Sequence record: PX915678.1
Strand: one strand, 5' to 3'
Length of the DNA: 64,000 bases
Source of the DNA: a phage
Both the position numbers and the translations under genes were made by a program. This document shows, piece by piece, positions 42,891-43,723 of this stretch. Positions within the stretch are counted from its first letter, which is position 1, and each line of letters begins with the position of its first letter. The notes below the pieces were generated by a model. The model worked only from the letters and a program-made list of their open reading frames with translations, made no database searches and had not been told where the DNA came from.

Positions 42891-42966
42891 TGGTCGAGGC
42901 AGTAGGGATCGAACCTACGACCTAGGACTTAGAAGGTCCTTGCTCTTCCTTCTGAGCTATGCCTCG
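42891..42966 (-). tRNA. tRNA-Arg (anticodon UCU)
   Basis: Cloverleaf CGAGGCA/TGCCTCG acceptor, anticodon arm AGGAC-CTTCTAA-GTCCT, T-arm GTAGG-TTCGATC-CCTAC, encoded CCA. Confidence 0.85.
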
Positions 42967-42970
42967 TATT

Positions 42971-43045
42971 TGGCGGACGTGATAGGATTCGAACCTATAA
43001 CCAATCGCTTAACAGGCGATCGCTCTGCCATTGAGCTACACATCC
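42971..43045 (-). tRNA. tRNA-Asn (anticodon GUU)
   Basis: GGATGTG acceptor, anticodon arm ATCGC-CTGTTAA-GCGAT, T-arm ATAGG-TTCGAAT-CCTAT, CCA encoded. Confidence 0.75.
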
Positions 43046-43049
43046 AAAT

Positions 43050-43136
43050 TGGTGGGGAGTGATGGAGTCGAACCACCCGAGTCGCAATGACAATGAATTT
43101 ACAGTCCACACCGCTACCTCTACGGGATAACTCCCC
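43050..43136 (-). tRNA. tRNA-Tyr (anticodon GUA), long variable arm
   Basis: GGGGAGT/ACTCCCC acceptor, anticodon loop CTGTAAA, variable arm TGTCATTGCGACTCG, T-loop TTCGACT, CCA encoded; 87 nt. Confidence 0.7.
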
Positions 43137-43149
43137 TTAATTCTTAATT

Positions 43150-43224
43150 TGGTGGCCCTGGGTGGAATTGAACCACCATCTGGCGATTATGAGTCGCTTG
43201 CTTGAACCTTCCAGCTACAGGGCC
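43150..43224 (-). tRNA. tRNA with CAU anticodon (Ile2-like; Met not excluded)
   Basis: GGCCCTG/CAGGGCC acceptor, anticodon loop CTCATAA, T-arm GGTGG-TTCAATT-CCACC. Confidence 0.75.
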
Positions 43225-43225
43225 T

Positions 43226-43301
43226 TGGTGCTGATTGACGGAATCGAACCGCCGACCTTCTCATTACAAGTGAGTTGCTCTACCTACTGAGCTAAATCAG
43301 C
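43226..43301 (-). tRNA. tRNA-Thr (anticodon UGU)
   Basis: GCTGATT acceptor, D-arm GCTC-AGTAGGTA-GAGC, anticodon loop CTTGTAA, T-loop TTCGATT. Confidence 0.8.
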
Positions 43302-43306
43302 AAAAC

Positions 43307-43396
43307 TGGCGGAGGCGATAGGATTTGAACCTATGAGTCGCCGGAGCGACTGCCGGTTTTCAAGACCGGTGCATTAAACCACTCTGCCACGCCTCC
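43307..43396 (-). tRNA. tRNA-Ser (anticodon UGA), long variable arm
   Basis: GGAGGCG acceptor, anticodon arm CCGGT-CTTGAAA-ACCGG, long variable arm, T-loop TTCAAAT. Confidence 0.85.
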
Positions 43397-43398
43397 AG

Positions 43399-43472
43399 TC
43401 TCCATACAAGGATTTGAACCTTGGACCTCCTGATCCCAAATCAGGCGCTCTACCAAACTGAGCTACACGGAG
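43399..43472 (-). tRNA. tRNA-Pro (anticodon UGG); CCA not encoded
   Basis: CTCCGTG acceptor, anticodon arm CCTGA-TTTGGGA-TCAGG, T-loop TTCAAAT; abuts tRNA-Ser 5' end (dimeric precursor). Confidence 0.8.
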
Positions 43473-43482
43473 TAAATTAAAT

Positions 43483-43556
43483 TGGAGCGGATAATAAGAA
43501 TCGAACTCACATCATCAGATTGGAAGTCTGAGGTAATACCATTATACGATATCCGC
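43483..43556 (-). tRNA. tRNA-Gly (anticodon UCC)
   Basis: GCGGATA/TATCCGC acceptor, anticodon arm TCAGA-CTTCCAA-TCTGA, T-loop TTCGATT. Confidence 0.85.
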
Positions 43557-43561
43557 AAATT

Positions 43562-43649
43562 TGGTGCGAGAAGTGGGACTCGAACCCACAAGGAAATCAT
43601 TCCGCAGCATTTTAAGTGCTGTGCCTTTACCAATTTGACCATTCTCGCG
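43562..43649 (-). tRNA. tRNA-Leu (anticodon UAA), long variable arm
   Basis: GCGAGAA/TTCTCGC acceptor, anticodon arm CAGCA-CTTAAAA-TGCTG, T-loop TTCGAGT. Confidence 0.85.
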
Positions 43650-43723
43650 CTGGGAATAAAGGACTCGAACCTTTGCATCTAGCAGTCAAAGTGCTATGCC
43701 TTACCAACTTGGCTAATTCCCAA
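43650..43723 (-). tRNA. tRNA-Gln (anticodon UUG); CCA not encoded
   Basis: TGGGAAT/ATTCCCA acceptor, anticodon arm TAGCA-CTTTGAC-TGCTA; 3' end directly abuts tRNA-Leu 5' end. Confidence 0.85.

Follow-up and report, generated by a model that had tools for sequence, protein, structure and literature searches.

The ten tRNA genes at positions 42891-43722 of the 64,000-nucleotide stretch of phage DNA analysed here (record PX915678.1; the window) are, we hold with high confidence, the tRNA cluster of a T2/RB14-type Tequatrovirus, a close relative of T4, lying in its usual place and having a two-part function, with the layout seen in T4 being the derived one. The array is real, ordinary and already known, having been annotated in hundreds of T2/RB14-like relatives. 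As a discovery it matters little, given that the relation to T4 was settled in 2008 and the role of the tRNA-Tyr was shown in 2026. ARAGORN places all ten genes on the minus strand in the order Gln, Leu, Gly, Pro, Ser, Thr, CAU, Tyr, Asn and Arg, with spacers (from its coordinates, Gln to Arg) of 0, 5, 10, 1, 5, 1, 13, 4 and 4 nt. This confirms the ten minus-strand genes, the named order and the 0-13 nt spacing given in the original prediction. The genes, all called by ARAGORN, are as follows.

43649-43722, minus strand: tRNA-Gln (UUG); Rfam 66 bits; 74/74 identical to T4; no encoded CCA
43562-43648, minus strand: tRNA-Leu (UAA); Rfam 59.3 bits; 87/87 identical to T4; CCA encoded
43483-43556, minus strand: tRNA-Gly (UCC); Rfam 62.5 bits; 73/74 identical to T4; CCA encoded
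43398-43472, minus strand: tRNA-Pro (UGG); Rfam 66.8 bits; 75/75 identical to T4; no encoded CCA
43307-43396, minus strand: tRNA-Ser (UGA); Rfam 62.6 bits; 90/90 identical to T2; CCA encoded
43226-43301, minus strand: tRNA-Thr (UGU); Rfam 72.9 bits; 73/76 identical to T4; CCA encoded
43150-43224, minus strand: CAU tRNA; 75/75 identical to T2 and 47/77 to T4 tRNA-Ile; CCA encoded
43050-43136, minus strand: tRNA-Tyr (GUA); 87/87 identical to T2 and 86/87 to T6; CCA encoded
42971-43045, minus strand: tRNA-Asn (GUU); Rfam 74.1 bits; 75/75 identical to T2; G73; CCA encoded
42891-42966, minus strand: tRNA-Arg (UCU); Rfam 68.1 bits; 75/76 identical to T2 and 48/79 to T4 Arg; CCA encoded

Nine of the ten genes pass the Rfam tRNA model (RF00005; gathering score 29) at 59-74 bits, with E values between 1e-10 and 1e-14 for the full 64 kb, and the top score is that of Asn. 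Across the whole window Rfam returned no RNA family besides these nine tRNAs, and at a permissive E-value the region 42000-44000 added only sub-threshold tRNA-derived matches (Plastid-ycf2, sX4, YrlA and tRNA-Sec). The wider 1.8-kb region is covered to at least 80% by 273 phage records, the listed relatives being 94-98% rather than 100% identical to it. RB14 (FJ839692) carries the identical ten tRNAs in the identical order. T2 has CAU, Tyr and Asn genes identical to those of the window and an Arg that matches at 75 of 76 positions, whilst an ORF stands where the window has Thr, giving nine tRNAs; in Aplg8-type phages a His gene is added between Asn and Arg, giving eleven. The cluster lies between trna.x ORFs upstream and e.x ORFs downstream, and the annotations of T2, Aplg8 and RB14 agree on this position and on the flanks.

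CCA is encoded in eight of the ten genes, Gln and Pro being the two without it, and both of these head a closely spaced pair. G73 of Gln is followed by a single C and then by position +1 of Leu, and A73 of Pro by CU and then by position +1 of Ser. Both junctions are identical to those of T4 and show the arrangement of T4-type dimers, in which the genes are 0-2 nt apart and the upstream one has no CCA; the claim that Gln-Leu and Pro-Ser abut without encoded CCA, as in T4, was thus borne out, and Gln, Leu and Pro are themselves 100% identical to T4. The gap between Thr and the CAU gene is also short (1 nt), but Thr encodes its CCA, as it does in T4. The body of tRNA-Ser matches T4 whilst its 3' end differs, reading CCGCCA in the window and CCGTAA in T4, where both Ser and Ile are without encoded CCA; the Ser and CAU tRNAs of the window both encode it. 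By analogy with T4, precursors would be cut into tRNAs by host enzymes, with Gln-Leu, Pro-Ser and Thr-CAU passing through dimeric intermediates, and Gln and Pro would need CCA addition by the host nucleotidyltransferase.

The sequence of the CAU tRNA marks it as an AUA-reading tRNA of the lysidine (Ile2) type and not as a tRNA-Met. Its best match in E. coli is an annotated tRNA-Ile with the anticodon CAU (81.6%), with which it shares an identical anticodon stem-loop (AGCGACTCATAATCGCCAG), and the label 'Met' given by ARAGORN was rejected in the light of this match and stem-loop. TilS recognises the CAU anticodon, an anticodon stem-loop of Ile2 type and, within the acceptor stem, C4-G69/C5-G68. 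The acceptor stem of the window's gene (GGCCC.../...GGGCC) has C4-G69/C5-G68, and the RB14 record annotates the same gene as tRNA-Ile.

Turning to function, eight of the tRNAs read NNA codons (CAA, UUA, GGA, CCA, UCA, ACA, AUA and AGA) whose frequency in this genome (35% G+C) is 1.5 to 7.5 times that of an E. coli sample, and the first part of the proposed function would be the supply of NNA-codon reading by these eight. The codons for the remaining two amino acids are also enriched relative to the E. coli sample, with Tyr codons at 46.6 vs 25.5 per 1000 (1.8x) and Asn codons at 60.1 vs 37.3 per 1000 (1.6x), UAU being 2.6 and AAU 3.5 times more frequent. These counts fit the codon-usage adaptation that had been offered as one explanation of the array, and codon supply is a plausible role for Tyr and Asn, but it is not their sole role given the published anti-defence function of tRNA-Tyr (PMC13096335). 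We consider it improbable that the two genes do no more than adapt tRNA supply to the codons of an AT-rich phage and contribute nothing to defence evasion. Such a reading would agree with the enrichment of Tyr and Asn codons and with the classic pattern of the other eight tRNAs, which read codons seldom used by the host. However, overexpressed T6 tRNA-Tyr rescues infection under Septu defence, and T2 resists Septu whilst T4, which has no tRNA-Tyr, is sensitive, so that the outcome tracks the presence of the gene (PMC13096335). The window's tRNA-Tyr is, moreover, unrelated to that of the host and belongs to a lineage common to many phage families and phage-plasmids. Relatives also carry a His tRNA without His codon enrichment: at 17.7 per 1000, these codons are scarcer in the window than in the E. 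coli sample (25.6 per 1000), which leaves the His tRNA of eleven-tRNA relatives such as Aplg8 unexplained by codon demand.

The second part of the proposed function would be that certain of these tRNAs stand in for host tRNAs destroyed by anti-phage nucleases. The tRNA-Tyr of T6 is expressed and counters Septu (Chihara 2026, PMC13096335), which cuts tRNA-Tyr in its variable loop (PMC13096335). The T6 tRNA is itself also cleaved by Septu (Chihara 2026, PMC13096335), which means that protection comes by dosage and not by resistance. By analogy with this T6 gene, to which it is identical at 86 of 87 positions, the tRNA-Tyr of the window may counter Septu PtuAB in the same way. In T5, tRNA-Tyr, tRNA-Asn, tRNA-Thr and tRNA-Lys are counter-defence tRNAs (PMC11555353, PMC12409363); compared with T5, the window lacks tRNA-Lys, and of the three types targeted by AriB it encodes two, Asn(GUU) and Thr(UGU). 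A role for Thr and Asn in countering PARIS AriB is something we can only infer. U39 and C41 of the E. coli target, around the cleavage site U36AAUC|C41, correspond to G39 and G41 in the Asn of the window, and C40 of the host Thr corresponds to G40 in the window's Thr. It is possible, though we lean against it, that the Tyr-Asn module together with Thr is mainly an anti-defence cassette and not a codon-supply device, with Tyr buffering against both Septu and the PtuAB of retron-Eco7; only the Tyr part of this reading is already published. If it is true, homing into tRNA-Asn by SegB, the endonuclease of the GIY-YIG homing endonuclease gene segB, would spread the endonuclease at the cost of part of this protection, and the greater sensitivity of segB-bearing phages such as T4 to tRNA-targeting defences would be explained.

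The Tyr and Asn cloverleaves had been singled out for checking with tRNA prediction software, and ARAGORN calls both of them; for the same genes in RB14, the record cites predictions of Tyr GUA and Asn GUU by tRNAscan-SE 1.23. Asn has the Rfam score of 74.1 bits given above, and the support for Tyr comes from covariation. The tRNA-Tyr has a GUA anticodon, a long variable arm, A73, an encoded CCA and an atypical D arm; it falls under the Rfam tRNA threshold, with tRNA-Sec as its best match (29.9 bits). We aligned 12 Tyr tRNAs of this phage lineage with E. coli tyrT, and in these 13 sequences 96.3% of the cells of the cloverleaf were paired and 13 of the 23 pairs showed compensatory changes, the acceptor, anticodon, variable and T stems all covarying. 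None of 500 shuffles matched the real alignment, and slid controls reached at most 56%. The D-stem register proposed by ARAGORN was rejected, being paired in 65% of cells with one position C-C in 12 of the 13 sequences, compared with 97% for a shifted 3-bp CCG/CGG stem. We see very little chance that the gene is a decaying pseudo-tRNA kept along with its neighbours: the score below the Rfam gathering threshold and the C-C mismatch in ARAGORN's D stem might be taken to favour decay, but four stems covary, the shifted D stem is almost always paired, the features expected of the molecule (A73, anticodon, variable arm and CCA) are in place, and the T6 gene is visible on northern blots and biologically active (PMC13096335), with the T2 copy being identical to that of the window. 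A search of the E. coli chromosome gave no match to the Tyr gene at E up to 1, and so it was not recently acquired from the host. T5-like phages carry a Tyr of the same sequence lineage (82.6% to phage OSYSP), which shares the peculiarity of the D arm.

The flanks of the array are homologous to T4 by BLAST, at 93-98% identity upstream (trna.2) and 89-94% downstream (rnaD, rnaC and e.8), and contain the following features.

43792-43819, minus strand: MotA-type middle-promoter-like site (ATTTGCTTTA, 12-nt spacer, TATTAT), a pattern match only
42524-42874, minus strand: 116-aa ORF in the Arg-rnaD interval; phrog_3355, E 5.8e-53 (unknown function); matches T2 gene T2_136
42413-42527, minus strand: rnaD-like gene (species 2 stable RNA) with a diverged middle, found by BLAST to T4 rnaD
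42267-42406, minus strand: rnaC (species 1 stable RNA), 97.9% identical to T4 rnaC over 140 nt
42193-42216, minus strand: intrinsic-terminator-like hairpin from a scan, with a 10-bp stem, 7 G-C pairs and a T run

The promoter-like site precedes tRNA-Gln by about 70 nt and falls within sequence 98% identical to T4; a scan for sigma-70 promoters found no excess (4 sites vs 6.6 in shuffled sequence). No Pfam match was obtained for four flanking ORFs, the 116-aa ORF included, and PHROGs assigned them only to families of unknown function. The rnaD-like gene is 92% identical to T4 rnaD over positions 4-53 and 94-119 (BLAST). The 3' two-thirds of rnaC has a tRNA-like fold, reported by ARAGORN as 'tRNA-?' at 42266-42361, and neither rnaC nor rnaD gave an Rfam match at a permissive E-value in the search of 42000-44000. 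In T2 and Aplg8, too, Arg is followed by the 116-aa ORF, rnaD, rnaC and a terminator, and the Aplg8 annotation has its putative terminator at the matching relative position; the hairpin appears to close the tRNA/stable-RNA unit. Transcription of the ten genes would probably yield a single polycistronic precursor or a small number of them, and the transcription unit appears to run from the promoter-like site through the tRNAs, the small ORF, rnaD and rnaC to a strong terminator.

Comparison with T4 corrects part of the original prediction, which had placed the stable RNAs of T4 between Arg and the other tRNAs. In the T4 annotation (NC_000866; eight tRNAs) the order is Ile, segB, Arg, rnaD, rnaC, so that the interval is occupied by segB and the stable RNAs lie 3' of Arg. 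The genes for Gln, Leu, Gly, Pro, Ser and Thr in T4 are 96-100% identical to those of the window and spaced in the same way, and the flanking genes are alike, whereas the Ile and Arg of T4 come from other lineages (47/77 and 48/79 identical). T4 has segB, lacks Tyr and Asn and goes from Arg to rnaD with no intervening ORF; in the window segB is absent, as is any ORF above 75 aa inside the array. Homology to T4, at 98% identity, runs from upstream of Gln, breaks off 12 nt inside the CAU gene and resumes where rnaD starts. The absence of Tyr and Asn from T4, on which the original prediction also depended, held up: ARAGORN found neither in the T4 tRNA locus, and short-word BLAST against the window's cassette found no remnants of them in the Ile-segB-Arg cassette, the only matches being the shared first 12 nt of CAU/Ile together with the end of Thr next to them, the beginning of rnaD, and 10-13-mers expected by chance.

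The proposal that Tyr and Asn replace the T4 stable RNAs, making the array an ancestral rnaC/rnaD region, deserves almost no credence, since, for all that both genes are missing from T4 and that the tRNA-like 3' domain of rnaC makes a tRNA origin of the stable RNAs conceivable in general, T4 has segB and not its stable RNAs in the Ile-Arg interval, the window keeps its own rnaC and diverged rnaD downstream of Arg, where they coexist with Tyr and Asn, and BLAST finds no similarity between these two tRNAs and either stable RNA. With rnaC and rnaD present downstream of Arg, Tyr and Asn are uninformative on the origin of the stable RNAs. The idea of an ancestral state fails for the stable-RNA region but survives in altered form, in that the Tyr/Asn array probably shows what the Ile-Arg interval looked like before segB arrived, as suggested by the position of the SegB site in tRNA-Asn and by an apparent intermediate in T6.

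The preferred cleavage site of SegB lies within the tRNA-Asn of T2L (Brok-Volchanskaya 2008, PMC2330249). T2L, RB1 and RB3 have no segB and possess Met/Ile, Tyr, Asn and Arg, and homing by SegB wipes out a region of ~1250 bp containing these tRNAs (PMC2330249). The window likewise has the array without segB, and its Asn, identical to that of T2 and carrying the GTTCGAATC motif at 42986-42994, is of the gene in which the T2L site was mapped; it is predicted to carry a preferred SegB homing site. From the homing mechanism and the distribution of the genes we infer that the eight-tRNA layout of T4 is derived, with segB gained and Tyr and Asn lost. T6 has a T4-type Ile, then a window-type Tyr and then segB directly, with Pro, Ser and Asn absent; its tRNA-Tyr sits after a CAU tRNA, as in the window, and this mosaic looks like an intermediate. 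SegB-driven amplification of tRNA-Tyr has been described for T6 (PMC13096335) and is not possible in cis in the window because there is no segB. Among phage records, the Tyr-Asn pair is found in 433, compared with 126 that have the Ile-segB-Arg cassette of T4. Since the T4 layout is both derived and in the minority, a scan that takes T4 as its reference keeps flagging the common layout as unusual.

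The ten-tRNA array is a real feature for which chance is no concern. ARAGORN places ten tRNA genes on the minus strand at 42891-43722, transcribed in the order Gln(UUG), Leu(UAA), Gly(UCC), Pro(UGG), Ser(UGA), Thr(UGU), CAU, Tyr(GUA), Asn(GUU), Arg(UCU), with spacers of 0, 5, 10, 1, 5, 1, 13, 4 and 4 nt. Nine of the ten pass the Rfam tRNA model at 59-74 bits (gathering score 29 bits), Asn scoring highest at 74.1 bits. CCA is encoded in eight genes, the exceptions being Gln, where discriminator G and a single C lead into base 1 of Leu, and Pro, where discriminator A and CU lead into base 1 of Ser. 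Given the spacers, the absent CCAs and the tRNA calls, Tyr and Asn included, the original prediction described the array correctly in every detail. T4 tRNAs are processed from dimeric precursors, with CCA added where it is not encoded, and the T4-identical junctions here suggest that Gln and Pro would be matured in the same way.

The array is an ordinary tRNA cluster of T2/RB14-type T-even phages, previously described and annotated. Many Tequatrovirus genomes match this region at 94-98% identity, with Shigella phage ESh16 closest (98.1%), and in 273 records at least 80% of a 1.8-kb query is covered. In RB14 (FJ839692), whose annotation is based on tRNAscan-SE 1.23, both the set of ten tRNAs and their order are identical. 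The T2 array has nine tRNAs and an ORF where the window has Thr, that of T6 runs Gln, Leu, Gly, Thr, CAU, Tyr and then segB, and the Aplg8 type has 11, with an extra His between Asn and Arg. Many relatives have an insertion of ~190 bp with this tRNA-His(GUG) between Asn and Arg (positions 2276-2465 of the Aplg8 locus).

The original prediction took T4 to have its stable RNAs between Arg and the other tRNAs, in the interval filled here by Tyr and Asn. That was wrong, because the T4 record (Gln, Leu, Gly, Pro, Ser, Thr, Ile, segB, Arg, rnaD, rnaC) places segB, a GIY-YIG homing endonuclease gene, between Ile and Arg, with the stable RNAs after Arg; T4 does lack Tyr and Asn, as had been claimed. 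The surrounding features of the window are as follows.

Features in and around the array
43809-44324, minus strand: 171-aa ORF between trna.2 and Gln; phrog_2290, a family without assigned function
43819-43792, minus strand: putative MotA-box middle-promoter-like sequence, ~70 nt upstream of Gln
43050-43136, minus strand: tRNA-Tyr(GUA), from ARAGORN and homologue alignment
42524-42874, minus strand: 116-aa ORF between Arg and rnaD; phrog_3355, a family without assigned function
~42413-42527, minus strand: diverged rnaD, with homology to T4 rnaD
42267-42406, minus strand: rnaC, 97.9% identical to T4
42216-42193, minus strand: strong terminator-like hairpin after rnaC

Window and T4 are 98% identical from upstream of Gln to 43213, 12 nt into the CAU tRNA, and homology restarts at 42524, the start of rnaD. 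The non-homologous cassette between these points comprises the body of the CAU tRNA, Tyr, Asn, Arg and the 116-aa ORF, whereas in T4 segB lies between Ile and Arg genes that differ from the window's CAU tRNA and Arg (47/77 and 48/79 positions identical, respectively). The window's Ser and CAU tRNA encode CCA and T4's Ser and Ile do not; T4 also lacks both flanking ORFs at these positions, neither of which has a Pfam match. Since the window retains rnaC and a diverged rnaD, Tyr and Asn coexist with the stable RNAs and are not replacements for them, and the suggested connection with that part of T4 fails. The window's rnaD is far more diverged from T4 than rnaC is, only its two ends aligning (92%). 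In BW-1, a close relative (96.6% identical in the array region), a convergent SNP appeared in rnaD as the phage was adapted to a new host in the laboratory (PMC12685909). The 116-aa ORF contains a second MotA-box-like site (42789-42761); a generic sigma-70 promoter scan was uninformative.

Brok-Volchanskaya et al. (2008, PMC2330249) sequenced the region in T2L, RB1 and RB3, which lack segB and carry additional Met/Ile, Tyr, Asn and Arg tRNA genes plus ORFs; they mapped the preferred SegB cleavage site within tRNA-Asn and found that, in T4 x T2L co-infection, segB homing removes a ~1250-bp T2L segment with these genes. At a coverage of at least 80%, 433 phage records match the Tyr-Asn pair and only 126 the T4 Ile-segB-Arg cassette. 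From the homing mechanism, the target site in Asn and this majority distribution, rather than from a dated phylogeny, we infer that the window layout is likely the state before segB arrived and that the T4 layout is derived. T6 (AP018814, 1-700), compared with window 42500-43240, looks like an intermediate, with segB in Asn's place and Tyr kept, because its Ile is of the T4 type (100/100), its Tyr of the window type (91/92) and its segB 96.5% identical to T4's. In that record segB is annotated 'serine recombinase'.

tRNA-Tyr falls under the Rfam tRNA threshold, its best match being the tRNA-Sec model (29.9 bits), and the D stem proposed by ARAGORN contains a C-C mismatch. We built an alignment of 13 sequences from the window's gene, E. 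coli tyrT and the homologues in T6, Aplg8, two Vequintavirus phages, Certrevirus, Felixounavirus, a T5-like phage, Karamvirus, a Klebsiella T4-like phage, Salmonella phage Arash and an E. coli phage-plasmid. ARAGORN's D-stem register was rejected, being paired in just 65% of D-stem cells as against 97% when the stem is shifted two positions (CCG/CGG). With the shifted stem, 96.3% of all stem cells pair and 13 of 23 pairs show compensatory changes; none of 500 shuffles did as well, and slid controls gave at most 56%. The gene thus appears to be a tRNA under constraint, whose unusual linker of 4-5 nt before the D stem accounts for its low Rfam score. Its discriminator is A73, its variable arm is long and its CCA is encoded; it is identical to the T2 gene at 87/87 positions and to the T6 gene at 86/87. 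We detected no relative on E. coli chromosomes. Among E. coli plasmids, 273 carry a tRNA-Tyr gene with 93% identity, and the tRNA-Tyr genes of several unrelated phage groups are 79-94% identical. The lineage is common to Vequintavirus, Certrevirus, Felixounavirus, T5-like, Karamvirus and Klebsiella T4-like phages and E. coli plasmids; in every member a linker of 4-5 nt follows the acceptor stem and the CCG/CGG D stem does not vary. Three homologues went undetected by ARAGORN.

The CAU tRNA, labelled Met by ARAGORN and Ile in the RB14 annotation, is on sequence grounds a predicted AUA reader of the Ile2 type rather than a Met tRNA, because it matches E. coli tRNA-Ile(CAU) at 81.6%, has an identical anticodon stem-loop and carries acceptor pairs C4-G69 and C5-G68.

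Codon-usage adaptation had been offered as one possible reason for Tyr and Asn. We compared the window's long ORFs (16,408 codons, 35% G+C) with an identically processed 50-kb E. coli K-12 sample (14,727 codons).

Codon usage (per 1000 codons) in the window and the E. coli sample
Tyr (UAU + UAC): window 46.6, E. coli 25.5, ratio 1.8
Asn (AAU + AAC): window 60.1, E. coli 37.3, ratio 1.6
His (CAU + CAC): window 17.7, E. coli 25.6, ratio 0.7
Eight NNA codons read by T4-type tRNAs: ratio 1.5 to 7.5 (AGA 7.5, AUA 5.1)

With Tyr and Asn codons enriched, codon supply is a sound explanation for these genes, if a partial one. It leaves the His tRNA of some relatives unexplained, since the window shows no enrichment of His codons; His(GUG) is among the minor cleavage products in a study of AriB, of the tRNA-cleaving host defence PARIS (PMC12409363). 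The spread of Tyr across plasmids and unrelated phages, with no chromosomal relative, is consistent with a mobile counter-defence gene. Under the Septu defence, overexpression of T6 tRNA-Tyr restores infection; T4, which has no tRNA-Tyr gene, is sensitive to Septu, T6 is intermediate and T2 resistant (Chihara et al. 2026, PMC13096335). T5 versions of PARIS-targeted tRNAs neutralise PARIS (PMC11555353, PMC12409363). The E. coli AriB target site is U36AAUC|C41 (PMC12409363); in their anticodon stems, the window's Asn (42971-43045) has G39 and G41 in place of U39 and C41, and its Thr(UGU) (43226-43301) has G40 where the host has C40, changes that might confer AriB resistance.

No function is established for rnaC (PMC3014915), which has no Rfam match at E up to 1, and its T4, T2 and Aplg8 copies are not called by ARAGORN. 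In the window, ARAGORN reports 42266-42361 (minus strand), the 3' two-thirds of rnaC, as 'tRNA-?'. Its acceptor-like stem is 8 bp long, its T arm is perfect (GGTTCGAATCC) and its extra arm is long, while the anticodon arm is degenerate and has a 6-nt loop.
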